Origin: Prevotella sp.
GTDB taxonomy: Bacteria; Bacteroidota; Bacteroidia; Bacteroidales; Dysgonomonadaceae
Reading direction: 5' to 3'
Length of the DNA: 18,803 nt
Assembly (NCBI GenBank): GCA_031285625.1
Contig: JAITVV010000083.1
Coordinates: forward strand, 1 to 18,803
Of this stretch, positions 375 to 17,534 are shown one piece after another; position 1 is the stretch's first letter; each line of letters starts with the position of its first letter. A program made the position numbers and the translations under genes. The notes beneath the pieces are model-generated. The model ran no database searches, was not told the DNA's origin, and was given only the letters and a program-made list of their open reading frames with translations.

Positions 375-2765
375 ATGAGAAAAATTTCAGCTCTACTCCT
401 ATTATTATTTGTCAGCATATCTTTCATTAGTGCTCAGGTAATAAAAGGAAGAGTACTTGACGAGAAAGGGGAACCTATCCCTTCAGCAACAGTGGTGGTT
501 AAAGAATTGCAAAAAGGCATGTCTACAGACGTAAAAGGAAGATTTAGATTTACACATCTTCCTGCTAGGGAATTAACAGTAGAAGTAAGCTTTGTAGGAT
601 ACAATAAGAACATAAAAAAAGTAGATTTAAGAGAGAATGGCGAGATTCATCTTCAATTTGATATGGAGGTTGACGCCAGAAGCCTAAATGAGATCGAGGT
701 ATTTGGCGAACGATACAAACAGCCTGAGAAACTGGATGCTATCACACGTATGCCATTACGTCCGAGCGAACAAATACAGAGTATATCGGTTATTTCGGAC
801 AAAGTAATTTCTGAACAAGGGGCATTATCTATTACGGACGCTGTGCGGAATGTTCCGGGAGTAACTCTTTTTGGATCTTACGGTGGAGTACGTGAGAGTA
901 TGTCTATCCGTGGATTCCGTGGAGTTCCAGTCTTGAAAAATGGTGTCAGAACAGATTCCCAATTCCAGACTGCATCTATGCAGACAGATATGGCAGGAGT
1001 AGAAAGCATTCAGGTAATAAAAGGGTCTGCTGCTATTACTCAAGGGGTGATTACAGATATAGGTAATGCCGGAGGAGTAATAAATGTAGTAACCAAAACT
1101 CCAAAATTTGTAAACGGAGGAGAGGTTGGAGTACGCGTAGGAAGCTGGGGGCAGGTTCGTCCGACTTTTGACATTCAATCAGTTTTAGATAGCAAAAAAA
1201 CTGTAGCTTTCCGTCTGAATGGAGCTTACGAACGTGCAGACAATTACAGACCGGTTGTGTCAATGGATAAGGTATATATCAACCCATCATTGGAATGGCG
1301 CCCGGATGATATGACAACAGTAACACTGGAGTTGGATTATATGAATGAAAACAAGACTCCGGTAACAAGTACTGTAAATCTTGCCGGTGCCGATGAAGAA
1401 AAATTATATGATATGCCTCATAGCAAGTTCTTAGGATTCAAACAAGACAATGTAAACAACAAGACCCTTACTTATGCAGCACGTATTACACGCATGCTTA
1501 CTGATAAGTTAAGCCTGAGAGCAGCATACTTTAACTCTTCATACAATGTTGATAATACTTCTACAGGACTGTCGGCTTTGAGAAGCCAGCCAACTGATTA
1601 TAATCTTAAACAGCGTACTATTTCACGTAGTTTACGTGATGATAAGAACTCTACATTCCAACTGGACTTTGTTGGAAGAGATGTATATACCGGTACTGTA
1701 AAGCATACATTCCAGGTTGGTTTCGATTACAGAATTGCAGATGCGACAACAACAAACCTTGGATCAATGCTGGTAGATACAATAGACGTACTGGCAGACA
1801 AAATACCGAATGATATGCCTGCAACGTTGAAACTGACAGGAGCAGGAGATCCAGTACAGGCTAAATATACAACCTATGGTATTATGGCACAAGAAGTAAT
1901 GACCATTAATGATTATATAAAAGTAATATTAGGTCTTCGCTACAGCTCGATCTCTACAATCAATGCAACAGCAGGGACAACAAGAAATGACGCATGGAAC
2001 CCAATGTTTGGTTTGATGGTATCTCCTATCAAGAATGTGAATGTATTTGGTTCATATACAACCAGTACAAGTTTAAGATCTGCTGCTCAGATATTAACGG
2101 ATAGCGTTACTCAGGCAGGCCCGTCTACAACAAAACAATGGGAAGTAGGATTCAAATCTGACTGGTTAGATAACAGATTACGTTTCAATTTCACGTACTT
2201 CAATATCAGAACAGAGAACCTGACAAATTCAGAATATATAGAAGGAACCAATACTTCTACTGGTTACTACTACAAAGCAGGAACACTAAAAAGAGACGGT
2301 ATAGAAGTAGAATTGAATGGACGCATTTTACCAAATCTACAGGTAATGCTAGGATATGCCTACCTGAATGCAAGATATGCAGATAGTCCATCCTATGTAA
2401 ACGGTTCCGCTCCAATGAATGCACCAAAACATACAGCTAACGGATGGGTATATTATACTGTCGACAGGGGGCCTATCAGAGGTTTGTCAATTGGTGTGGG
2501 AGCATATTATGTTGGAGACCGTCCTGTGAATGAGTACAGCCTTGCTCCTGACGGACATGGATCCCCGGTAGGGACAAAACCATTCGATATGCCTGCTTAT
2601 ACAACTGTGAATGCACAATTGGCATATACATATAAGAGAGTTACAACACGTGTATTCTTCAACAATATATTTGACGAACTGGGATATAACTCTTATTACC
2701 GTGGTGGTTACATCAATCAGATCGACCCTAGAAACTTTGCAGGAGTAGTATCCTATCGTTTCTAA
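375..2765 (+). CDS. TonB-dependent siderophore-type receptor with N-terminal CarboxypepD_reg-like domain
   Basis: Signal peptide; IKGRVLDEKGEPIPSATV N-terminal domain; plug motifs (QSISVIS, NVPGV, SIRGF, IQVIKGS, GGVINVVTK); barrel ending PRNFAGVVSYRF with a C-terminal Phe. Confidence 0.92.
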   Translation: MRKISALLLLLFVSISFISAQVIKGRVLDEKGEPIPSATVVVKELQKGMSTDVKGRFRFTHLPARELTVEVSFVGYNKNIKKVDLRENGEIHLQFDMEVDARSLNEIEVFGERYKQPEKLDAITRMPLRPSEQIQSISVISDKVISEQGALSITDAVRNVPGVTLFGSYGGVRESMSIRGFRGVPVLKNGVRTDSQFQTASMQTDMAGVESIQVIKGSAAITQGVITDIGNAGGVINVVTKTPKFVNGGEVGVRVGSWGQVRPTFDIQSVLDSKKTVAFRLNGAYERADNYRPVVSMDKVYINPSLEWRPDDMTTVTLELDYMNENKTPVTSTVNLAGADEEKLYDMPHSKFLGFKQDNVNNKTLTYAARITRMLTDKLSLRAAYFNSSYNVDNTSTGLSALRSQPTDYNLKQRTISRSLRDDKNSTFQLDFVGRDVYTGTVKHTFQVGFDYRIADATTTNLGSMLVDTIDVLADKIPNDMPATLKLTGAGDPVQAKYTTYGIMAQEVMTINDYIKVILGLRYSSISTINATAGTTRNDAWNPMFGLMVSPIKNVNVFGSYTTSTSLRSAAQILTDSVTQAGPSTTKQWEVGFKSDWLDNRLRFNFTYFNIRTENLTNSEYIEGTNTSTGYYYKAGTLKRDGIEVELNGRILPNLQVMLGYAYLNARYADSPSYVNGSAPMNAPKHTANGWVYYTVDRGPIRGLSIGVGAYYVGDRPVNEYSLAPDGHGSPVGTKPFDMPAYTTVNAQLAYTYKRVTTRVFFNNIFDELGYNSYYRGGYINQIDPRNFAGVVSYRF

Positions 2766-2844
2766 TCACTATTTATTGTTAGCAAAAGACATAAATATCA
2801 TCATTTATTGTGATTGCAGGATAAAAGAATAACCCTGATCTTTG
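2765..2844 (+). promoter_or_regulatory. Internal promoter with two tandem ATCAC-N8-GTGAT-like boxes
   Basis: ATTG (2813-2816), 20 nt, GATCTTTG (2837-2844). Boxes at 2765-2782 and 2797-2814. Same architecture as 246-325. Confidence 0.6.
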
Positions 2845-2848
2845 TATC

Positions 2849-2934
2849 GATGATAGTTTAAAGAATTACTTAACTTTGATGATAGTTTAATTCCGGTGTT
2901 TTAGCTAAGCTTAGACACCGGAATTTTTCTTTTT
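2849..2934 (+). ncRNA. Candidate small RNA or attenuator leader with a duplicated 13-nt motif
   Basis: Starts just after a promoter, carries GATGATAGTTTAA twice (2849-2861, 2878-2890) and ends in a strong intrinsic terminator. Confidence 0.5.
2889..2934 (+). terminator. Intrinsic terminator
   Basis: Perfect 11-bp stem AATTCCGGTGT (2889-2899) / ACACCGGAATT (2915-2925), extendable inward, followed by a T-rich tract to 2934. Confidence 0.85.
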
Positions 2935-2958
2935 ATATAAAACAACTAAAGAACTATT

Positions 2959-4074
2959 ATGAGAATTTTTTTGAAAAAACTTCACAAATGGCTTTCTATA
3001 CCAGTAGGACTCATCATTACGATTGTCTGCCTTACTGGAGCAATTCTGGTTTTTCAGGATGAAATACTGGAACTCTCAAACCCTTCCCACTATTTTATAA
3101 AGGAAACAAAAGGCAACTCGATACCATTAGATGAATTGATACCGATGGTAAATGCACAACTGGACAGCAACAGCGTTGCCAGCGTACAAATTTCTCACGA
3201 TCCGGAACGTACTTACAGGATGACACTTGCCGAAGGATTCAGAATCACTGCATTTGTCAATCAATATACAGGAGAGGTAACCGGGATGTATAAATTCAGG
3301 GAAAGCCCTTTCTTTACCATCATGTCGCTGCATCGCTGGCTGATGGATGGCAGCCGTACCTGGGGGAAATATACAGTGGGAATATCTACCCTTATTTTTG
3401 TTTTCATACTGATTACCGGACTCATAGTATGGATGCCGAGACGATGGAACAGAAGCCGTTTTAAGATACAGCTTAAAAAAGGGAAAAAGCGATTGTTTTA
3501 CGATATGCACAATGTGCTAGGCGCATATGCTTGTCTTGTATTACTCATATGTGCCCTCACCGGTATGGTATGGTCTTTCGACTGGTACCGCAATGGGATA
3601 TTCAAACTTTTCGGTGCGGAAATCAAGCAGGAACAAGGACATGGAGGCGGTGGCAGAGGAGGAAAGAAAAAAGAAAAGGAGGAGCTGAATATTGCCAACT
3701 GGCAGGACATACTCAATACATTAAAGACATCAAACCCCGATTATGAATATGTACGCGTACAGGATGGTTCTGCTGCTGTTCATCTGAAATCATCGGTTAC
3801 CTCTCGCGCAACCGACCAATATAAATTTGATAAAAGGACTGGCGAAATTACCCAGACTACTCTTTTTAAAGATCAGGAGGGTACAACTAAAATATGGGCA
3901 TGGGTATACTCATTACATGTAGGTAATTACTGGGGCATATGGTCTAAGATATTTACCTGTATATTTTCACTGATTGGTGCCAGCCTGCCTCTGACAGGTT
4001 ATTATATGTTCTTTGTGAGAAGAAAAAAGGAGCAAACAGTAAAAAAACGAAAGGAAGAAAAAAGTGCTTTATAA
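2959..4074 (+). CDS. PepSY-associated TM-helix protein (iron-regulated membrane protein; FoxB/XusC-like)
   Basis: KLHKWLS...TGAILVF, SLHRWL, LITGLIVWMP, YDMHNVLG, TGMVWSF and SLHVG motifs. Four conserved TM histidines. Lies downstream of a TonB receptor. Confidence 0.92.
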   Translation: MRIFLKKLHKWLSIPVGLIITIVCLTGAILVFQDEILELSNPSHYFIKETKGNSIPLDELIPMVNAQLDSNSVASVQISHDPERTYRMTLAEGFRITAFVNQYTGEVTGMYKFRESPFFTIMSLHRWLMDGSRTWGKYTVGISTLIFVFILITGLIVWMPRRWNRSRFKIQLKKGKKRLFYDMHNVLGAYACLVLLICALTGMVWSFDWYRNGIFKLFGAEIKQEQGHGGGGRGGKKKEKEELNIANWQDILNTLKTSNPDYEYVRVQDGSAAVHLKSSVTSRATDQYKFDKRTGEITQTTLFKDQEGTTKIWAWVYSLHVGNYWGIWSKIFTCIFSLIGASLPLTGYYMFFVRRKKEQTVKKRKEEKSAL

Positions 4075-8048: not shown

Positions 8049-10301
8049 ATGAAAAGAATATTTCTGACAATAAGCATAGCTTTAGCAACAACCTGCCTGT
8101 CTGCACAGACAGAACCTGTCGACTATGTAAATCCATTTATAGGGACAACAAATTATGGAACAACAAATCCAGGAGCAATGTGTCCGCAGGGATTTATGTC
8201 TGTCACACCATTCAATGTAATGGGATCATCCGAGAACAAACGCGACAAAGACACCGGATGGTGGTCTACACCATACTCGTACGACAACAGTGTTTTTACA
8301 GGCTATGCACATGTTAATCTGAGCGGTGTAGGATGCCCCGAGATGGGAAGCCTGCTCTTGATGCCTATCAGCGGTGACCTTGAGGTAGATTACCGTAAAT
8401 ACGGAAGTAAATATAAAGATGAAAAAGCTACAGCCGGATATTATACTAATTATCTGACCAAATATAATATCAAGACTGAAGTAAGTGCAACCCAGCGAGT
8501 AGGCATTGCGCGCTTTACTTTTCCCAAAGGACAAAACCACATATTGCTCAATCTGGGCGAAGGGCTAACCAACGAAACAGGCGCTATGGTTCGCAAAGTA
8601 AGCGATACCGAAATAGAAGGGACAAAACTGCTGGGAACGTTCTGCTATACACAAAATCAGGCGGTATTCCCTATCTACTTTGTAATGCGTGTAAGCAAGA
8701 AACCTCAGAAATCTGGTTACTGGAAATTTCAGCGCCCCGGAGAAAAATGGGAAGAAGACTGGAATAAGGATGCCGGGAAATATAAAATATATACCAAGTA
8801 TGAAAAGGAGATAGCTGGCGATGATGTAGGTGCTTATTTCACATATGATTGTAAAGAAGGAGAAACAGTAGAGGTACAGATGGGTGTTTCCTTCGTGAGC
8901 ATTGAAAATGCACGCCTGAATCTCGAACAGGAACAACCTAAGCCAGACTTCGATGCTATCCGCCTTGCTGCACGTAAGATGTGGAACGATGACCTTTCAC
9001 GCATTCTGATAGAGGGAGGTACAGAAGATCAGAAAACAGTATTCTATACAGGGCTATATCATATGCTTATCCATCCTAATATACTACAGGATGTAAACGG
9101 ACAATATCCGGCAATGGAAAGTGCTGAAATAAAAACGACTAAAGAAAACCGCTATACAGTCTACTCATTATGGGATACATACCGCAATCTGCATCAGATG
9201 ATGACATTACTTTATCCTGACCGCCAGTTGCAAATGGTACGTACAATGGTGGACATGTATAAAGAATCGGGATGGATGCCGAAGTGGGAACTTTATTCCC
9301 GTGAATCGTTTACAATGGAAGGTGACCCTGCTATCCCTGTTATAACCGATACATGGCTAAAAGGCTTACGTGACTTTGATATCAATACAGCATACGAAGC
9401 ATTTATTAAATCAGCAACTACACCGGGATTACAAAATCTGTTACGACCAGATAACGACGATTATATGAAGCTGGGCTATGTACCATTAAGGGAAAAATAT
9501 GACAACTCAGTTTCTCATGCATTGGAATATTATATGGCAGACTGGACGCTTGCAGAGTTAGCAAAAGGTCTGGGTAAAAAAGAAGATGCCGAAAAATTCT
9601 ATAAACGTTCATTGGGTTACAAGCATTACTATAGTAAAGAATACGGTACGTTCAGACCGATATTGCCTAACGGAGAATTCTTAACTCCTTTTAGCCCGTT
9701 GCAAGGAGCCAATTTTGAGCCTAATCCGGGTTTCCATGAAGGAAATGCATGGAATTACACATTTGCTGTACCGCACGATATACCGGGACTAATGAAACTG
9801 ATGGGCGGAAAGAAGAGCTTTGTGGATAAACTACAGTCTGTGTTTGACAATGGTTATTTTGATGTTACCAACGAACCCGATATACATTATCCATACCTGT
9901 TCAGTCAGATAAAAGGTGAAGAGTGGCGTACCCAAAAACTTGTGAAGCAGATATTAGCTGATCATTTTACCAATGCTCCCGGCGGGCTCCCAGGCAATGA
10001 TGATACAGGAACCATTTCGGGATGGGCTGTTTTCAGTATGATGGGCTTCTATCCTGAATGCCCGGGAAAACCTGATTATACACTGACTACTCCTACATTC
10101 AATAAGATAACGATCAAACTTGACCCTAAACATTATAAGTCCGACAAAGTGGTTATTAATGTAATCAAGCCTCAGGATGCAGCTGCTGATTATATTAAGG
10201 AAGTAAGGGTAGATGGTAAAACATTAAACGGATACAGCCTTTCTCATGAGGCACTTACAGGAGCAAAAGAAATAACTTATATATTGAAACCGGGTAAATA
10301 G
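8049..10301 (+). CDS. Glycoside hydrolase family 92 alpha-mannosidase (alpha-1,2-mannosidase-like), secreted
   Basis: Signal peptide; YVNPFIGT, HVNLSGVGCP, VFYTGLYH, SLWDTYR, VSHALEY, FHEGNAWNY, NEPDIHYPY and GLPGNDDTG motifs. Confidence 0.95.
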   Translation: MKRIFLTISIALATTCLSAQTEPVDYVNPFIGTTNYGTTNPGAMCPQGFMSVTPFNVMGSSENKRDKDTGWWSTPYSYDNSVFTGYAHVNLSGVGCPEMGSLLLMPISGDLEVDYRKYGSKYKDEKATAGYYTNYLTKYNIKTEVSATQRVGIARFTFPKGQNHILLNLGEGLTNETGAMVRKVSDTEIEGTKLLGTFCYTQNQAVFPIYFVMRVSKKPQKSGYWKFQRPGEKWEEDWNKDAGKYKIYTKYEKEIAGDDVGAYFTYDCKEGETVEVQMGVSFVSIENARLNLEQEQPKPDFDAIRLAARKMWNDDLSRILIEGGTEDQKTVFYTGLYHMLIHPNILQDVNGQYPAMESAEIKTTKENRYTVYSLWDTYRNLHQMMTLLYPDRQLQMVRTMVDMYKESGWMPKWELYSRESFTMEGDPAIPVITDTWLKGLRDFDINTAYEAFIKSATTPGLQNLLRPDNDDYMKLGYVPLREKYDNSVSHALEYYMADWTLAELAKGLGKKEDAEKFYKRSLGYKHYYSKEYGTFRPILPNGEFLTPFSPLQGANFEPNPGFHEGNAWNYTFAVPHDIPGLMKLMGGKKSFVDKLQSVFDNGYFDVTNEPDIHYPYLFSQIKGEEWRTQKLVKQILADHFTNAPGGLPGNDDTGTISGWAVFSMMGFYPECPGKPDYTLTTPTFNKITIKLDPKHYKSDKVVINVIKPQDAAADYIKEVRVDGKTLNGYSLSHEALTGAKEITYILKPGK

Positions 10302-10307
10302 TATACT

Positions 10308-10378
10308 TTGTCATTCTGAGTGAAACGAAGAATCTCACCTTCTATACACGAGATTCTTCGTTTCACTCAGAATGACAA
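10308..10378. repeat. TGTCAT-type REP-like palindromic repeat, copy 2 (perfect 29-bp IR) between convergent genes
   Basis: TTGTCATTCTGAGTGAAACGAAGAATCTC (10308-10336), a 13-nt loop, then its exact reverse complement (10350-10378). Confidence 0.92.
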
Positions 10379-11577
10379 TCATTTTTATACCGTTCAAACT
10401 CGTCCTTAGACCTATTCACACAATCTTCGAGAGACAGACCATAGTAATAATTACCGAGCAAATAGATATTCTTATCTTTCCTTACAGACTGTACTTTTTC
10501 AGCCATATGCAGATGCTCGACACGCATAGCAGGTAAGCTATGTTCTATCGATTTTGTTTCAATAATATCCGGAGCAGAAATATCCAATACTTTACAAATC
10601 AAATCCAGCTTCTCTTCTTTACTCTTCCTTCCTTTTTCGAAATGAAATGTGAAGCTTCTGTATTTGTCATTCTCTATTAAGTCTCTCGAAACAGCCGACA
10701 AGAATTCGTCGGATAAAGAGATAATACCCGCAATTGGCTGCAGGTCCATCTTTTCTTTTGGTATAGTTATATTGATTGATTCAGACTCGAAGATTGGTAT
10801 TGAAGATAACAACTCCGCTAGCTCAGGCTCTATATCCTGTAATAACATTGACGATATTTTGGGGTTGGCAGCCATTGCTATATTTCGGGATTGGTAAGTT
10901 TGCCCGTTTCCGGTTATTATACAAAATAGCTCTCCTTGCTTTTTTATACCAATAACTTTTGATAATGTATCTACCTCAATATTGTCCTTCTCAATCACTG
11001 TGTTGATGAAAGTAGACAACCCCCCTTTAAAAGTAAACCTTCTGGAAATCTCTTTGTCCCTGTTCTTTCTCTTCTTCAGAAATATCTCGGCAGGATAATC
11101 ATCAGCAGGCTGACAAATAACAGCCTTAAAAGCATTCGTAAACAGTCGGTCATAATTAGAAGCACCCACTATCGGACGAAAATATTCACGTGTTGTTTTT
11201 CCTATTTTATCTGAGAAAAAATATTTAGGAAAGTGAAGCAAGCATGATAATTTAGATACCTCCGAACTAATGCTTTTAATTTTATCTGATGCATACAGTA
11301 CAAAGCTAAACTTGCTAAGTGGCGCTATTAAATCAGTTCTACCCAGATCTTTTACAATGGATAATAAGCTGGTATATGAATTGTAGCAAGTATGTGAACC
11401 CAGTTCGTACCAGAAATCGGAATCAGAAGACAGATGGCCTGTTTGCAGTTGTCCTCCGGTTCTTTCACCTTTTTCAAGTATCAATACCTTTCTGTCCTCC
11501 TTTTTCAGATAGTGGGCAAAAGAAACACCACTGAGGCCACCTCCCACTATAACACAATCATATACAGTCTCACTCAT
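10363..11577 (-). CDS. FAD-dependent oxidoreductase, divergent HemY/HemG (proto/coproporphyrinogen oxidase)-like
   Basis: Rossmann motif VIVGGGLSG...ILEK..RTGG, ELGSHT, FTFKGGLSTF, and C-terminal LLGNYYYGLSLEDCV resembling HemY. Clusters with hemN. ATG at 11577 preferred over GTG at 11583. Confidence 0.7.
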   Translation of the reverse strand: MSETVYDCVIVGGGLSGVSFAHYLKKEDRKVLILEKGERTGGQLQTGHLSSDSDFWYELGSHTCYNSYTSLLSIVKDLGRTDLIAPLSKFSFVLYASDKIKSISSEVSKLSCLLHFPKYFFSDKIGKTTREYFRPIVGASNYDRLFTNAFKAVICQPADDYPAEIFLKKRKNRDKEISRRFTFKGGLSTFINTVIEKDNIEVDTLSKVIGIKKQGELFCIITGNGQTYQSRNIAMAANPKISSMLLQDIEPELAELLSSIPIFESESINITIPKEKMDLQPIAGIISLSDEFLSAVSRDLIENDKYRSFTFHFEKGRKSKEEKLDLICKVLDISAPDIIETKSIEHSLPAMRVEHLHMAEKVQSVRKDKNIYLLGNYYYGLSLEDCVNRSKDEFERYKNDCHSE

Positions 11578-11598
11578 ATTCACAAAATTTGCTTAATA

Positions 11599-11606
11599 CA
11601 AATATA
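11599..11606 (-). promoter_or_regulatory. Possible -7 element for the HemY-like gene
   Basis: Minus strand TATATTTG about 20 nt upstream of the ATG. No clear -33 element. Confidence 0.4.
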
Positions 11607-11739
11607 CAAGGAATATTCTTCATTTATAATATCCAATATGTGTTAAATAAAGAGACTGTAACTTATGTGACACAATTATCGGAGTCGTATTCATATTTTT
11701 GATCTTGCATAGGTGTGCAAAAGATAAAGTAAGGAAAAT

Positions 11740-11787
11740 ATCACTACATCTAGTGATTGACAGCTATTTTTAGTTTCCCTACATTTG
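11740..11787 (+). promoter_or_regulatory. Promoter of the second TonB receptor with a palindromic operator
   Basis: Palindrome ATCACTA-CATC-TAGTGAT (11740-11757) overlaps ATTG (11756-11759), then 20 nt, then TACATTTG (11780-11787). Confidence 0.75.
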
Positions 11788-11829
11788 TCAATCAACTAAA
11801 AAAAACAATAATCAAGACACTTGATAAGA

Positions 11830-13923
11830 ATGAATTTTAAATATATTCTTCTGTTAACCTGTTTCGTATGTACCATTATTAATAGTATTCATGCTGATGA
11901 TATACCCATCGACAATGATTCTATTAAGATGAGGTATACAGCGAGAGAAGTAGTGATAGAGTCATTTAAGCAAAATAGTGACCTGTCTGTTCAGCCCATC
12001 TCTGCATCTATTCTTTCAGAGAGTGTTATCAAGGAAAATAACATAACCAATATAAAGGAAGTTACAGCTTTTGTCCCAAATCTGTTTATGCCGGATTATG
12101 GCTCCAAGATGACTTCTCCAGTCTATATACGGGGAATCGGTTCTGCAAAAAATGCTCCTTCAGTCGGGCTGTATGTGGACGGCGTTCCATACTTTGATCG
12201 TTCCACTCTCGATATAAATATCAATGATATAGATCGCATCGAAGTATTAAGAGGCCCGCAAGGAACTATTTACGGAAGAAATACAATGGGCGGTATTATC
12301 AATGTATTTACTAAATCACCACTAAAAACCACAGGCACCAATATTAATTTATCGGCAGGTAATTATAATACTTATCAGACAGGAGTTTCACATTATGGAA
12401 ATGTGGATAACAAAGTCGGTTACTCCCTTTCGGGAAACTATATGCATTCCGGCGGCTATTTTATGAATAAGACCACGGAAAAACGCGCTGACCCTATTGA
12501 TGCTATATCTACACGTGCACGATTGAGCTGGAGAATTATGCCGCGATTGACAGCAAATCTTATTCTGGCTTATGAATATTCAGACCAGGACGGATATCCA
12601 TATCGTATTTATAATAAAGAAACCAGGGAAGTGGAAGATATAAATTATAACTCCCGGAGTTTCTATCGCCGCAATATGTCCACCAACGGCCTGAATATAG
12701 AATACGTTACCGATAATTTTAAGCTGGGTTCTCAGACCTCTTTTCAGTTTTATGATGGCAAGCAGGGACTCGATCAGGATTTCTCGCCAATAGATCAATT
12801 TTACGTAGACTTCTATCAGCGGCAGCAAATGTACTCTCAGGAGTTTAATATCAAGTCGATAAGAGAAGACAGTAAATACAAATGGCAGTTTGGTCTTTTC
12901 GGATTTCACCAAAATTACTTTCAGATCAACGATGTTGACTACCGTACTACCGGAAAGCATGTATTACAAAATGTACATAACCCTACTGAAGGAGTGGCTG
13001 TATACCATCAGTCTACATTGAATGACATATTCATACCCGGGCTATCAGCCACATTTGGTATCCGCTACGACTGGGAAAGGACAAAATCGTCCCTGATACG
13101 CACAACTAAAGATCCGGGTGTAGAACCTATTATTGAACCGGAAGTAAAGGTAAAAGACCACTTCTCTCAGGTAACACCAAAGGCTTCGATCCAATATTCC
13201 TTCAACAGAGACGGATTAGTATATTTTTCTGCTACAAAAGGATATAAGACAGGGGGATTTAATAACACAGCCGATGAAGATAAAGACAGAACTTTCGATC
13301 CCGAACATAGCTGGTGCTACGAGTTAGGCTCCAAGTCAAGCTTCTTTGACAATCTGTTATACCTTGATCTTACCCTTTACTATATTAAATGGAATGATCA
13401 GCAAATATCCCAGACTAAGCCGACAGGACAAGGCTTCCTGATCCGTAATGCGGGAAAATCGGAAAGTAAGGGGATTGAATTTTCAGCACAAGTGAATCCT
13501 CTAAGGAATCTGAATTTCCAATTAACGTATGGTTATACCCATGCAAAATACAAAGAATACAAGGAGAGTGAAACGACCAACTATGATAACAACTATCTGC
13601 CAATGGTTCCTCAAAATACAGTAGCCATATCAGCAAATTATACAATAGAAACCAATCAGAGATGGCTGGATAATATTGTACTGAACGCGCAATATACCGG
13701 GGTTGGTAAATTATACTGGAACGATGCAAATGATATAGATCAGCCATTTTATGGATTGTATAGTGGAAAGATTTCTTTTGTAAAGAAGCTATTTTCACTG
13801 GATTTGTGGACTAAAAATATCGGTTCAAAAAACTATATAGCATATTACTTTAAGTCATCCGGCGATTTTGTACAAAGGGGGAAACCTTTTACTTGTGGAG
13901 TAAATTTGAATTTAAAGTTTTAA
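11830..13923 (+). CDS. TonB-dependent receptor (FyuA/pesticin-receptor-like plug)
   Basis: Signal peptide; VYIRGIG, VGLYVDGVP, IDRIEVLRGPQGTIYGRNTMGGIINV, KGYKTGGFN, NAGKSESKGIE; C-terminal GVNLNLKF. ATG at 11830 preferred over TTG at 11821. Confidence 0.92.
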   Translation: MNFKYILLLTCFVCTIINSIHADDIPIDNDSIKMRYTAREVVIESFKQNSDLSVQPISASILSESVIKENNITNIKEVTAFVPNLFMPDYGSKMTSPVYIRGIGSAKNAPSVGLYVDGVPYFDRSTLDININDIDRIEVLRGPQGTIYGRNTMGGIINVFTKSPLKTTGTNINLSAGNYNTYQTGVSHYGNVDNKVGYSLSGNYMHSGGYFMNKTTEKRADPIDAISTRARLSWRIMPRLTANLILAYEYSDQDGYPYRIYNKETREVEDINYNSRSFYRRNMSTNGLNIEYVTDNFKLGSQTSFQFYDGKQGLDQDFSPIDQFYVDFYQRQQMYSQEFNIKSIREDSKYKWQFGLFGFHQNYFQINDVDYRTTGKHVLQNVHNPTEGVAVYHQSTLNDIFIPGLSATFGIRYDWERTKSSLIRTTKDPGVEPIIEPEVKVKDHFSQVTPKASIQYSFNRDGLVYFSATKGYKTGGFNNTADEDKDRTFDPEHSWCYELGSKSSFFDNLLYLDLTLYYIKWNDQQISQTKPTGQGFLIRNAGKSESKGIEFSAQVNPLRNLNFQLTYGYTHAKYKEYKESETTNYDNNYLPMVPQNTVAISANYTIETNQRWLDNIVLNAQYTGVGKLYWNDANDIDQPFYGLYSGKISFVKKLFSLDLWTKNIGSKNYIAYYFKSSGDFVQRGKPFTCGVNLNLKF

Positions 13924-13978
13924 GGGATCGTGGAAAAATTATCTTATAGTAAGGGCAAAAAATTATGAGTTATAAGTG

Positions 13979-14027
13979 AAAAGTAACAATAGAAAATGTA
14001 GGAATAGTTGTAACCTTTGTCACTTTT
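13979..14027. repeat. Short inverted-repeat element (GTGACA/TGTCAC family), copy 2
   Basis: AAAAGTAACAA (13979-13989) / TTGTCACTTTT (14017-14027), one mismatch. Similar length and ends to 7895-7944. Confidence 0.6.
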
Positions 14028-14034
14028 TTGTTCC

Positions 14035-14114
14035 TGTCATGCTGACAACAGGAAGCATCTCGACTCATTCATCAAGGACAAAAGGTAAGAGATCCTTCGT
14101 TCCTCAGGATAACA
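14035..14114. repeat. TGTCAT-type REP-like palindromic repeat, copy 3 (variant)
   Basis: TGTCATGCTGACAACAGGAAGCATCTC ... GAGATCCTTCGTTCCTCAGGATAACA; same TGTCATnCTGA / GAAGnATCT scaffold. Confidence 0.75.
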
Positions 14115-14120
14115 AAGAGG

Positions 14121-14177
14121 AAAAGGAGATAGTAACACTAAAAAACAATAAAAAACCTGTTACCTTTGTCACCTTTT
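14121..14177. repeat. Short repeat element (GTGACA/TGTCAC family), copy 3
   Basis: AAAAACCTGTTACCTTTGTCACCTTTT (14151-14177) matches 7918-7944 at 26/27 positions. The left arm is degenerate. Confidence 0.65.
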
Positions 14178-14251
14178 AACAATTGTAAAATACGAAACAG
14201 CTACGTCAGCTTATTAATAACCGTTGCTGTAAACTGATAACCGAAATATAG

Positions 14252-15496
14252 ATGGGAGTAAACATACAAAAAGGAGGAAAACTATTCACATTCTTTTGCC
14301 TGTATATCGCGCAATCGATACCGATGAGTTTTTTCTCTACAGTCATACCTGTTATAATGAGGCAGAATAATTTCTCGCTCGAAACTATTGGTATGTTACA
14401 GTTACTGAAACTCCCATGGATACTAAAATTCCTGTGGTCTCCGGTTGTAGATCGCTCTACTTTCAGATTAGGCGATTTTAAGAGATGGATATTTTCATCA
14501 GAACTGATATATGCAACTATTATATTTGCAGTGTCTTTTCTTGATTTTCAGACAACGCCCTATCTTATTATCGGCCTTGTTATCCTCTCTTTTATAGCAT
14601 CTGCAACTCAGGATATTGCAACTGATTCTCTAGCTGTTTTATCATTTAGTAAGAAAGATAAAAGTCTGGCAAACAGTATGCAGTCAATGGGCAGTTTTGC
14701 CGGAGCAATGATCGGAGGCGGTGCTCTACTTCTGCTCTATCATAAATTCGGATGGGGAAACCTTTTGCCATTCCTTGCCTTGTTTGTCATTATAGCACTT
14801 GTACCTCTGATATTTTTCAGGAATGGACACAATCAGGATATTATAAGAGCCAGACAAGAAGAGAAAGCGACAACAAACGATATACTCGGTTTCTTCAAAC
14901 AGAAAGGGATATGGAAACAGATCGTATTCCTATTTCTATATTATGCAGGGCTCATTGGGGTTCTGGCCATGCTGAAACCAATGCTTGTAGATTATGGTTA
15001 TGATATGAAAGAGATCGGTATCATGTCGGGAATCGTAGGCACATCTATCGGTTGTCTTGCTTCGTTTGGCGGAGGATTTATTGTCAGGAAAATAGGAAGG
15101 CATGCGGCACGTATTTTGTTCGCAGTATGCACATTGGTGACTACAATCTATTTTTGCTTATTGGTTTCAGTTCTGCCCATTAATATAGCAACATTGCATC
15201 TGGGAATTTCACTATTGTGGGGAAGTTATGGGATAGCCGTAATTGTGGTATATACTACAGCCATGGACTGTGTCCGCCCGGGATTTGAAGGTACAGACTT
15301 TACTATACAAACGGTTATTACTCACCTCAGTGGGATTATTATGGGGGTAAGTTCAGGTAAAATAGCAGCGATGATAACCTATAAAGGCTTATTTGTTGTA
15401 GAAATGTGCATTGCAGCTGTTTCACTGGCATTTATCCTGTTTGCATTTAAACTTAAAGCACCAAAAGAAAAAGATGAAACAAGAATTACTGAATAA
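14252..15496 (+). CDS. MFS permease, AmpG/RhtX/FptX/YbtX family
   Basis: LYIAQSIPMSF, LPWILKFLWSPVVDR, SATQDIATD and EGTDFTIQ family motifs; about 12 hydrophobic helices. Confidence 0.88.
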   Translation: MGVNIQKGGKLFTFFCLYIAQSIPMSFFSTVIPVIMRQNNFSLETIGMLQLLKLPWILKFLWSPVVDRSTFRLGDFKRWIFSSELIYATIIFAVSFLDFQTTPYLIIGLVILSFIASATQDIATDSLAVLSFSKKDKSLANSMQSMGSFAGAMIGGGALLLLYHKFGWGNLLPFLALFVIIALVPLIFFRNGHNQDIIRARQEEKATTNDILGFFKQKGIWKQIVFLFLYYAGLIGVLAMLKPMLVDYGYDMKEIGIMSGIVGTSIGCLASFGGGFIVRKIGRHAARILFAVCTLVTTIYFCLLVSVLPINIATLHLGISLLWGSYGIAVIVVYTTAMDCVRPGFEGTDFTIQTVITHLSGIIMGVSSGKIAAMITYKGLFVVEMCIAAVSLAFILFAFKLKAPKEKDETRITE

Positions 15497-16841
15497 ATAT
15501 AGTGTTCCGGTGCCAAGGTATACAAGTTATCCCCCGGCTAACTTCTTCAATGAATCATTCAATGCGGATTCATATAAGGATGCTATTATTAAATCGAACG
15601 AACAGAGTCCTCAGCATATATCGATCTATATCCATATCCCGTTCTGTTTCCAGATGTGTTTCTATTGCGGATGCAACTCGCAACTACTGAAAGACAATCA
15701 TGTAATAAAAGACTACATTAATGCCTTAAAAAAGGAAATAAGGATGGTACTTCCTCTATTAGACCATAGCAGGAAAATATCTCAAATACATTATGGAGGT
15801 GGGACTCCAACCTCTCAACCAGTATCTGTACTCAAAAAAATCAACCAAATGATTTTTTCCGAGTTTGATTGCATCAAAGACCCTGAGATAGCTATAGAAT
15901 GTCATCCGGGATATATGGACGAAGACTACTGGAATGAGCTTATCGATGCCGGATTTAACCGTATCAGTATAGGAGTACAGGATTTTAATGAAGACGTGCT
16001 GAAAGCATCTAACCGGAAACTTTCGCGGATGCCGATGGAGGATATTGTACATATATTAAGAAGCAGGAGTATGGCGCTAAATATGGATTTTATATATGGG
16101 CTTCCGTTACAGACACCTGAATCTTTTGCAGAGACAATCAATAAAGCTATCTCTTTAAAGCCGGATAGAATAGTGACTTTCTCTTATGCCCATGTGCCTT
16201 GGGTGAATGAGTTGCAAAAGAACCTTGAAAAGATAGGCCTACCATCAGTTTCTATAAAAAATGAGATATACGAAACAACAAAGAAACTGCTGACGGATGC
16301 GGGATATAAAACAATAGGCCTCGACCATTTTGTATTACCCAACGACGAGCTCTACGAGGCTTTAGAGTCGAAAGCTTTGCACCGTAATTTTCAGGGATAT
16401 TGCACACGCCGTACTACCGGACAGGTTTATGCTTTTGGCATTACAGGTATTAGTCAGCTGGCGACAGCATATAGCCAGAATACTAAAGACCTGAGCACAT
16501 ACATATCTCAGGTAAATGCAGGCCAATATCCTATAGCTAAAGGTTATATTTTGAATAAGGAAGAACAGATAACACGCGAAATTATATCTGCCCTGATGTG
16601 TAACTATACTGTCAACTGGGAAGACATAGCAACCCGGATGAATTTATCTGTGGCAGATGTAAAAGGGGCACTAAATTATAAAGAGGAAGTATTAACCGAT
16701 TTCGCGAAAGATGGTATTATTAAATTTGACAACGATTATATCACAGTCTTACCTGATGCAGCACCATTTGTGCGCAATGTAGCAGCCTCTCTGGATAAAC
16801 TGATGTTGAATAGCAATAAGCGATATTCTAAGTCGGTGTAA
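15474..16841 (+). CDS. hemN: Oxygen-independent coproporphyrinogen III oxidase (radical SAM)
   Basis: N-terminal PRYTSYP, YIHIPFCFQMCFYCGCN (CxxxCxxC), HYGGGTP, GLDHF and HRNFQGY; the last distinguishes true HemN from HemW. ATG at 15474 overlaps the MFS gene end by 23 nt. Confidence 0.93.
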   Translation: MKQELLNKYSVPVPRYTSYPPANFFNESFNADSYKDAIIKSNEQSPQHISIYIHIPFCFQMCFYCGCNSQLLKDNHVIKDYINALKKEIRMVLPLLDHSRKISQIHYGGGTPTSQPVSVLKKINQMIFSEFDCIKDPEIAIECHPGYMDEDYWNELIDAGFNRISIGVQDFNEDVLKASNRKLSRMPMEDIVHILRSRSMALNMDFIYGLPLQTPESFAETINKAISLKPDRIVTFSYAHVPWVNELQKNLEKIGLPSVSIKNEIYETTKKLLTDAGYKTIGLDHFVLPNDELYEALESKALHRNFQGYCTRRTTGQVYAFGITGISQLATAYSQNTKDLSTYISQVNAGQYPIAKGYILNKEEQITREIISALMCNYTVNWEDIATRMNLSVADVKGALNYKEEVLTDFAKDGIIKFDNDYITVLPDAAPFVRNVAASLDKLMLNSNKRYSKSV

Positions 16842-16913: not shown

Positions 16914-17534
16914 ATGAAAACTTTTTTTAAATTCTTACTATTTGTGTGTATTTCATGTTATCTGATATCTTGCAACAGCGATATGGATAATTCAGAAGAA
17001 TCCAACGCCTACAGATTCTATTCCATTATGTGGAAATTAGATGATGGAGACGGACTGGAAGTACTGGACTATAAAACACACGAAGTCTTTTATAATAATG
17101 AAAACAAGGATATAAATATTGTTTTCGAATCAATGGAAGAAGTTGAGGATTACTCTTATTTTCATGAAACCGAAAATGCAGAATTATTGAAAAAACTATT
17201 AGGTAAGGACTCCATTGTATCAATACCATCTGAATATAACTATCTATTTTCTGATTACAGTTCTTTTAGTGGAACAGAAGCTCCCTTACGTATTGGAGAA
17301 AAGGTAAAACTACATCCACTCATGGCCGCCGCATCTGTGACAAGATTGCCACCAAACTGTAAATTGACTCAAGATAGAACAGTGTATCAAGATAAAATAA
17401 CAGCGACTTATTCCATCCGATTTGTCTCCAAAAAAGACTGGTTTGATTATAAAGAAATACAAGGGAAATGGACTGGAGTATTTTTCAGAGATATAGAAGA
17501 AAATCCTGTAGTCGAAGAGATTGGAGTTGAATAA
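16914..17534 (+). CDS. Hypothetical lipoprotein, probably surface exposed
   Basis: SPII signal peptide with lipobox LISC, followed by acidic NSDMDNSEE resembling a Bacteroidetes lipoprotein export signal. Confidence 0.75.
   Translation: MKTFFKFLLFVCISCYLISCNSDMDNSEESNAYRFYSIMWKLDDGDGLEVLDYKTHEVFYNNENKDINIVFESMEEVEDYSYFHETENAELLKKLLGKDSIVSIPSEYNYLFSDYSSFSGTEAPLRIGEKVKLHPLMAAASVTRLPPNCKLTQDRTVYQDKITATYSIRFVSKKDWFDYKEIQGKWTGVFFRDIEENPVVEEIGVE

Follow-up and report, generated by a model that had tools for sequence, protein, structure and literature searches.

A transporter pair in front of hemN: a conserved gene cluster of Bacteroidales with a probable role in tetrapyrrole salvage

Many gut and oral Bacteroidales cannot make heme, and the retention of the last heme enzymes in some of them is a puzzle. 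We address it here with a locus from a stretch of 18,803 nt on contig JAITVV010000083.1 of the Prevotella sp. assembly GCA_031285625.1 (Dysgonomonadaceae), referred to as the window throughout. The locus raises a simple question: what do two transport genes, for a TonB-dependent outer-membrane receptor and a permease, do directly in front of hemN? An earlier note on this DNA had read the receptor, the permease, HemN and a divergently encoded flavoprotein as an import module of siderophore type turned to the salvage of a tetrapyrrole intermediate. Comparative genomics largely supports the salvage interpretation. The locus is very probably a conserved tetrapyrrole-salvage unit of Bacteroidales, here in its Dysgonomonas version, and we infer that its substrate is probably coproporphyrin III or coproporphyrinogen III.

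Gene order, distribution and the loss of hemE

The genes in the window were called from a map of open reading frames (ORFs) together with Pfam and NCBIfam scans. All four lie where the earlier note had placed them, with receptor, permease and hemN in one direction (Table 1). For comparison we used an evenly drawn sample of 301 genomes of the order from 208 genera, a set of fetched loci that take in about 9 kb to either side of the permease gene in 44 other permease-bearing genomes, 80 named loci from a species-genome collection, and a sample of 401 genomes of the phylum.

Permease orthologs (44-83% identity) occur in 45 of the 301 genomes of the order and in 33 of the 208 genera; the closest homologs bear Dysgonomonas names, with 73-92% identity. 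In the phylum sample, all genomes with a permease at the level of an ortholog belong to the order (G000, G017, G029, G112), and the remaining nine matching genomes encode AmpG-like proteins 25-29% identical to the permease. At least 580 stretches of the species-genome collection encode a permease relative. Named carriers are Dysgonomonas, Proteiniphilum, Parabacteroides, Paludibacter, and Bacteroides pyogenes, B. hominis and B. neonati, joined by metagenome-assembled genomes (MAGs) of Rikenellaceae, an uncultured Alistipes bin and a Porphyromonas cangingivalis MAG. The window thus derives from a Dysgonomonas-like bacterium. The sequencing runs that match it best are termite and insect gut metagenomes, with one from a termite gut in first place.

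Judged by coordinates, 41 of the 45 permease-bearing genomes have the permease gene immediately upstream of hemN in the same orientation. Among the 44 fetched loci, tblastn puts a receptor ortholog directly in front of the permease gene in 43. The named loci repeat this pattern: the receptor precedes the permease in 79 of 80, and hemN follows it in 71. Four of the nine without hemN are cut by contig ends, four are uncultured Prevotella bins and one is a Rikenellaceae bin (L117). The receptor-permease-hemN arrangement is thus far beyond chance. A single strand, a 23-nt overlap of permease and hemN, and an order kept in 41 of 45 genomes across this 33-genus set are the marks of an operon, and the cluster is presumably co-transcribed.

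Linkage extends to HemY in most lineages and to HemH in some. Clustering of ORFs finds a gene of the protoporphyrinogen oxidase (PPO) family in 35 of 45 loci when the window is counted with the others; it is placed after hemN everywhere except in the window and in a relative of the same genus (L038), where it is divergent. A ferrochelatase gene lies within the locus in 15 of 45 cases. The common layout is therefore receptor-permease-HemN-HemY(-HemH) on one strand, with HemH between HemN and HemY in Paludibacter and the Porphyromonas cangingivalis bin.

The cluster is tied to the loss of the early heme pathway, as the earlier note had expected. In the order sample, 88 genomes carry hemN by the TIGR00538 cut-off and 89 at an E-value of 1e-60. 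These 89 comprise 47 genomes with hemE and without the permease, 41 with the permease and without hemE, one with both and none with neither, so that hemE is missing from 41 of the 42 genomes with permease and hemN versus none of the 47 with hemN only. Counted over all permease genomes, hemE is present in one of 45 versus 47 of 47 hemN-only genomes, and hemB in 4 of 45 versus 44 of 47.

Kinship does not explain this split, because permease-linked and unlinked HemN sequences (39 and 40, respectively) are intermixed on the HemN tree, which needs 16 changes of linkage, at least nine of them forced by well-supported branches. Ten independent contrasts for hemE could be drawn on this tree: hemE changed in the direction opposite to linkage in nine, in the same direction in none, and did not differ in one (sign test, p 0.004). 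L207, which probably belongs to a linked gene split over two contigs, was left out of these contrasts.

What stands in front of hemN in genomes with the de novo pathway? These keep hemN and hemY together in 31 of 40 loci, with hemH in 21 of 40, and in at least 15 of the 47 genomes hemE lies no more than 350 nt upstream of hemN. The uptake pair therefore holds the operon slot of hemE, and the repeated swap of a biosynthetic gene for an uptake module at one operon position is documented by these loci.

The genome of the window itself (4.84 Mb in 96 contigs, 94% complete) fits this pattern. Neither an early tetrapyrrole gene nor a ferrochelatase gene was detected by the Pfam and NCBIfam scans of the window, which bears out the earlier note. 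No complete de novo pathway was found in the assembly: hemA has no match above the family cut-off, hemB and hemC have no match, and hemE has no match to its equivalog model, five URO-D Pfam matches all falling short of it. One HemD-family protein is encoded. A single ferrochelatase is found on contig C52, with 266 bits on PF00762 and 189.6 on TIGR00109 (cut-off 124.6). Judged from these family matches, the protoporphyrin-dependent route appears to be reduced to its final three steps in this genome. A coproporphyrin-dependent route via ChdC was considered and set aside, since the genome has no ChdC match.

The proteins of the locus

Table 1. Features of the locus, given in positions of the window
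Feature	Position	Strand	Basis
HemY-like PPO-fold FAD flavoprotein, 406 aa	10363..11583	-	TIGR00562, predicted fold
Divergent intergenic region, HemY-like gene to receptor gene	11584..11820	.	sequence read
TonB-dependent outer-membrane receptor, FyuA-like, 700 aa (longest ORF)	11821..13923	+	Plug and barrel domains
Receptor-permease spacer, unusually long, ~329 nt	13924..14251	.	sequence read
Interspersed repeat, ~81 nt, inside the spacer	~14035-14116	.	sequence read
AmpG/RhtX/FptX-like MFS permease, 414 aa	14252..15496	+	MFS_1 domain
HemN (coproporphyrinogen III oxidase, oxygen-independent, radical SAM), 455 aa	15474..16841	+	TIGR00538

The hemN ORF spans 15411-16841, and the family match starts at ATG 15474, from which the 23-nt overlap with the permease gene follows, as previously noted. 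The protein is a true HemN, again as claimed before: it reaches 451.9 bits on TIGR00538 (cut-off 324.95) and stays under the cut-offs of the rival models HemW TIGR00539 (160.1/205.4), ChuW/HutW (161.7/400) and HemZ (129.3/321.4). Residues 5-444 align with 12-444 of E. coli HemN (1olt, E-value 7.5e-92), i.e., over the full length, and the alignment shows HIPFC..C..CGC, of the form CxxxCxxCxC, and GGGTPT. We take the former to be the cluster-binding motif of HemN and GGGTP to be a HemN motif likewise. As linked and unlinked sequences are intermixed on the tree, the linked HemN is an ordinary enzyme, which by orthology with the de novo HemNs should convert coproporphyrinogen III to protoporphyrinogen IX.

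In D. mossii, fabG comes directly 3' of hemN. In the window, a 206-aa ORF with a lipoprotein-like signal follows after 73 nt (16914-17534), without a match in Pfam or NCBIfam. It was rejected as a member of the system, as only one of the 80 named loci has a homolog and the 44 fetched loci have none; an insertion that varies between strains is the probable explanation.

The receptor, whose likelier start is ATG 11830, has the domains PF07715 (Plug, 71.6 bits) and PF00593 (barrel, 127.2 bits), and its nearest solved structure is FyuA (4epa, E-value 1.6e-29, full length). On TIGR01783, the model for TonB-dependent siderophore receptors, it scores 165.5, under the cut-off of 223.5. It also fails both heme-receptor models, with 54.7 on TIGR01785 (cut-off 316.85) and 56.7 on TIGR01786 (323.75).

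The window also encodes, at 375-4074, an XusA/XusC-like pair for iron uptake: a separate TonB-dependent receptor that passes the siderophore model (TIGR01783, 293.9 bits, cut-off 223.5) comes first and a PepSY_TM protein second. The pair lies about 6 kb upstream of the heme locus and is separated from it by GH2 and GH92 glycosidase genes.

In other genomes, small proteins of about 115-125 aa without a Pfam match are encoded directly upstream of the receptor (e.g., L047:11553-11915, L060:6637-6996, L145:4403-4762); the window has none. Of the 111 loci with enough upstream sequence, at least 34 have such a gene, at a distance of 40-430 nt from the receptor. The proteins start with a hydrophobic helix (MFxFGxFxSxxPY), continue with an acidic part that varies, and end in a conserved [FL]SRPPP, which is replaced by LRGPPxA in a second subtype. 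The SRPPP protein may act as a regulator in the membrane or as a leader that stalls at its polyproline.

In case of the permease, the best NCBIfam model is RhtX/FptX TIGR02718, where it reaches 170.9 of the 356.15 required; on AmpG TIGR00901 it reaches 147.6 of 350. A profile built from 33 orthologs matches the AmpG structure 8zgz, the nearest solved one, at 1.3e-42. The permease shares superfamily fold and topology with AmpG and makes up an ortholog group of its own. In one genus the permease match is in two pieces around a mid-protein insert of about 40 aa, with an open frame of 482-508 aa (G003:C6:257425-258738; G268:C32:32221-33528).

As to the flavoprotein, the earlier note had called it HemY/HemG-like; the first half of this label stands and the second does not. 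The protein scores 109.2 bits on the protoporphyrinogen oxidase model TIGR00562 (cut-off 97.85), split over three stretches, and its ortholog from the same genus scores 57.3, under the cut-off. An AlphaFold model (pLDDT 91.5, pTM 0.90) has PPO/CgoX structures as the top nine Foldseek matches, with monoamine oxidases ranking after them. The best match is the Myxococcus PPO 2ivd with a template modelling (TM) score of 0.81, followed by 3i6d (0.79) and 4ivm (0.76); 3nks is also among the top matches (2ivd, 3i6d and 3nks give 0.78-0.82), and the Myxococcus, Bacillus and human PPO/CgoX structures together cover 0.76-0.82. In the N-terminal FAD-binding GxGxxG, G14, G16 and G19 are invariant in the alignment.

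Parabacteroides sp. Marseille-P3160 encodes a counterpart in the same divergent place, with which the flavoprotein shares 48% identity from end to end, and the short divergent variant is found in Dysgonomonas, Proteiniphilum and this Parabacteroides. BLAST likeness to canonical HemY is confined to the N- and C-terminal parts. The canonical HemY encoded 3' of hemN in other lineages has 445-496 aa and, in all five non-Dysgonomonas cases tested, matches TIGR00562 over its full length with 244-288 bits. No other PPO was found in the window's genome, which makes the flavoprotein the sole protoporphyrinogen-oxidase candidate detected: HemJ has no match above the cut-off, and a Flavodoxin_5 match considered as HemG proved to be FldA (209 bits), with 24 bits on the HemG model (cut-off 142). 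By family scores and modelled fold, we regard the flavoprotein as a PPO-fold protein that has diverged strongly and is characteristic of Dysgonomonas-like genomes, predicted to be HemY-like rather than HemG-like.

Between the genes, boxes of the type TAnnTTTG, presumably the -7 consensus of Bacteroidetes promoters, occur at 11780-11787 in the divergent intergenic region and at 14161-14168 in the receptor-permease spacer. This spacer measures 4 nt in two close relatives (L081, L083). The repeat within it has 42 matches in the window's genome, its own copy included, at 74-100% identity, and in four sequencing runs extra depth is seen there, with loose ends at 14035/14115. Two of these four runs are RNA-labelled and derive from relatives about 90-99% identical. 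Their contigs cover the flavoprotein, receptor, permease and hemN genes and were not counted as evidence of transcription, as DNA carry-over is possible in runs that come in contig form, one contig spanning both divergent genes. Scans of the window for sigma-70-like promoters (35 sites versus 28.4 +/- 5.2 in shuffled sequence) and for terminator-like sites (7 versus 4.4 +/- 2.1) were not above chance, and no Rfam family reached its gathering score.

What the pair may carry

On the most economical reading, the genomes with the pair make no coproporphyrinogen III, and they keep HemN only together with the pair; hence the pair most likely delivers the substrate of HemN or a precursor of it. From this association we infer which way transport runs, what is carried and in which redox state. 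In the proposed mechanism, the FyuA-like receptor would bring a tetrapyrrole, most likely coproporphyrinogen III or coproporphyrin III, across the outer membrane, and the AmpG/RhtX-like permease would take it on through the inner membrane. HemN, whose translation is coupled to that of the permease, would convert it to protoporphyrinogen IX, the PPO-fold flavoprotein would oxidize this to protoporphyrin IX (PPIX), and ferrochelatase, encoded on contig C52 here and inside the operon in many relatives, would insert the iron. Coproporphyrin is the main porphyrin of faeces, abundant there and excreted by many bacteria. Along this line, Caldwell et al. are said to have reported in 1965 that rumen Bacteroides (B. 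ruminicola) use coproporphyrinogen instead of heme.

Exceptions in gene content offer a further view of the family. In one annotated locus of an uncultured Prevotella (L155), a HemD-family (HEM4) gene at 8227-9021 follows the receptor-permease pair in the place of hemN, which is a further tetrapyrrole link. In three more uncultured Prevotella loci (L154, L158, L159) hemN is likewise missing downstream of the pair, and in the Rikenellaceae bin L117 a HEM4 gene (11295-12314) lies about 3 kb from it. HEM4 beside the pair hints at a second tetrapyrrole-linked use. In G291, a contig end interrupts the permease, and hemN is located on a different contig. Separately, L171 (G096:C91, 1513-5068) has a receptor 32% identical to that of the window directly upstream of hemN, without a permease; its genome is that of a heme prototroph (hemB+ hemE+).

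Several observations weigh against coproporphyrin(ogen) salvage. For both transporters, the closest relatives with a known function transport siderophores or muropeptides. One genome (G121) carries both hemE and the cluster, and three of the 45 permease genomes (G081, G112, G210) lack hemN. The most divergent pair (receptor 36% and permease 44% identity), at 992-10635 of L077 (G112:C8), lies without hemN behind Xus-like siderophore genes for a receptor, a DUF4374 lipoprotein and two PepSY_TM proteins; this pair may represent a sister of the family that handles siderophores. Ferrochelatase is not recognisable in 12 of the 45 permease genomes, several of which are 99-100% complete. The flavoprotein of the window shares 17-23% identity with 11 canonical HemYs, and HemY enzymes usually depend on O2, which is odd in anaerobes. 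HemN requires the reduced porphyrinogen, which is unstable in air, and we know of no porphyrin reductase. Finally, the absence of a gene from a draft genome 94% complete does not prove that the organism lacks it.

The missing ferrochelatases are in accordance with a report, in the part of PMC6460266 available to us, that iron insertion in Bacteroides and Prevotella is the work of an enzyme not yet identified. According to one abstract, Porphyromonas has uniquely retained HemH among the Bacteroidota analysed there; among our carriers ferrochelatase is present in 33 of 45, from many genera.

Would the pair import PPIX, heme or porphyrins in general, with HemN and HemY kept for another reason or as relics? 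We consider this unlikely. Such import would leave both enzymes useless, yet 41 of the 45 carriers have an intact hemN coupled to the permease; the linked HemNs have not diverged from the de novo ones, and among the 89 hemN genomes of the sample none is without hemE and keeps hemN without the pair. On the other side stand the 12 carriers without HemH, by which the operon is not always a complete three-step route, and the clean loss of hemN in G210, where receptor, permease, HemY and HemH follow each other with a 160-nt spacer (L051, G210:C30, 384-6487); hemN was not found at an E-value of 1e-60 elsewhere in this 98%-complete genome. Growth of Bacteroides and Porphyromonas on PPIX plus iron, as given in excerpts of PMC6460266 and PMC12094164, would also fit.

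A further variant concerns the redox state of the substrate. The stable, oxidised coproporphyrin III might be taken up and the PPO-family flavoprotein of the operon might run in reverse in the reducing cytoplasm, as a porphyrin-to-porphyrinogen reductase. We hold this to be a rather improbable variant, which would especially apply to the diverged 406-aa Dysgonomonas type encoded divergently beside the receptor; to our knowledge, such an activity is not yet known in biology. If true, coproporphyrin would be a vitamin-like public good in anaerobic gut communities. Possibly coproporphyrin III would enter in the form of a metal chelate, a cargo that would suit a pair of the FyuA/YbtX kind.

An ordinary importer of (xeno)siderophores or metallophores of the FyuA/YbtX or FptA/FptX type, next to hemN because of shared iron regulation, would account for FyuA as the closest structure of the receptor, RhtX/FptX as the best model of the permease, and the Xus-like genes in front of the G112 pair; the siderophore-type receptor and PepSY pair at 375-4074 may be counted on the same side. 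Receptor and permease are both well under the siderophore family cut-offs, however, and iron supply would leave unexplained the near-constant joining to hemN, the near-restriction to genomes without hemE and the occupation of hemE's place in the operon. We therefore regard this reading as quite improbable.

It is very improbable that the substrate is another tetrapyrrole, i.e., an earlier porphyrinogen, a corrinoid precursor, or coproheme with a non-canonical HemN: the HemD-family genes of L155 and L117, the three further Prevotella loci without hemN, and the radical SAM relatives AhbD and ChuW, which act on coproheme or heme, would agree with it, but uroporphyrinogen would need HemE, missing in 44 of the 45 carriers, ChdC was not found in the window's genome, and HemN scores as a HemN equivalog, under the HemW and ChuW cut-offs, and is orthologous to de novo HemNs.

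Salvage of coproporphyrin(ogen) III would give a concrete and widespread genetic answer to the retention of late enzymes in heme-auxotrophic Bacteroidales. The two genes are candidates for an importer of a heme-pathway intermediate, which as far as we know would be the first in bacteria. This reading predicts that porphyrin cross-feeding is a determinant of residence in anaerobic guts, those of insects included, and it suggests growth supplements for Bacteroidales that are hard to culture.

Comparison with known systems

The operon is real and conserved, and apparently undescribed: full-text literature searching, which did not extend to supplements (e.g., the tables of PMC13096392), found no description of it.

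Retention of late heme enzymes has parallels elsewhere, as Leishmania keeps the last three and Haemophilus keeps ferrochelatase. Among Bacteroidota, auxotrophs such as P. gingivalis (HemN/HemG/HemH) keep the last steps and are thought to finish heme from scavenged precursors, according to the accessible part of PMC13096392. The 'HemN' of P. gingivalis is nearer to HemW (in the portions available of PMC12094164 and PMC13096392), the available text of PMC13096392 links no dedicated importer to it, and the accessible sections of both papers discuss salvage of coproporphyrinogen III in this species only as theory. In contrast, the locus described here has a true HemN that is translationally coupled to a transporter.

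The pair resembles FyuA/YbtX, FptA/FptX and RhtA/RhtX in that a plugged receptor of the 22-strand type is combined with a single permease of the AmpG/RhtX/FptX superfamily. Since both proteins fail the family cut-offs of these siderophore pairs, we do not file them as members. Unlike the siderophore pairs, this one has no genes for siderophore synthesis or reduction nearby and is joined to hemN-hemY-hemH, almost only in genomes without hemE.

The Hmu (HmuYRSTUV) and Hus (HusA/HusB) systems of Porphyromonas and Bacteroides likewise serve heme-auxotrophic Bacteroidota and start with a TonB-dependent receptor. The present cluster differs from Hmu-type heme uptake, as the earlier note had held: it has no hemophore, no CobN-like HmuS and no MotA/ExbB-like genes, its inner-membrane step is an MFS permease, and it is physically joined to enzymes. 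Its receptor is also far from the heme receptors, given the score on the TonB-hemin model reported above. Uptake of coproporphyrinogen III or PPIX by Hus for HemN/HemG/HemH has been proposed, as theory only, in the part of PMC12094164 available to us.

The closest counterpart is the hemE-hemN-hemY-hemH operon of prototrophic Bacteroidales, with which the cluster shares orthologous HemN, HemY and HemH in equal order. The difference lies at the front of the operon, where hemE and the earlier genes are gone and the receptor and the permease fill the slot before hemN.

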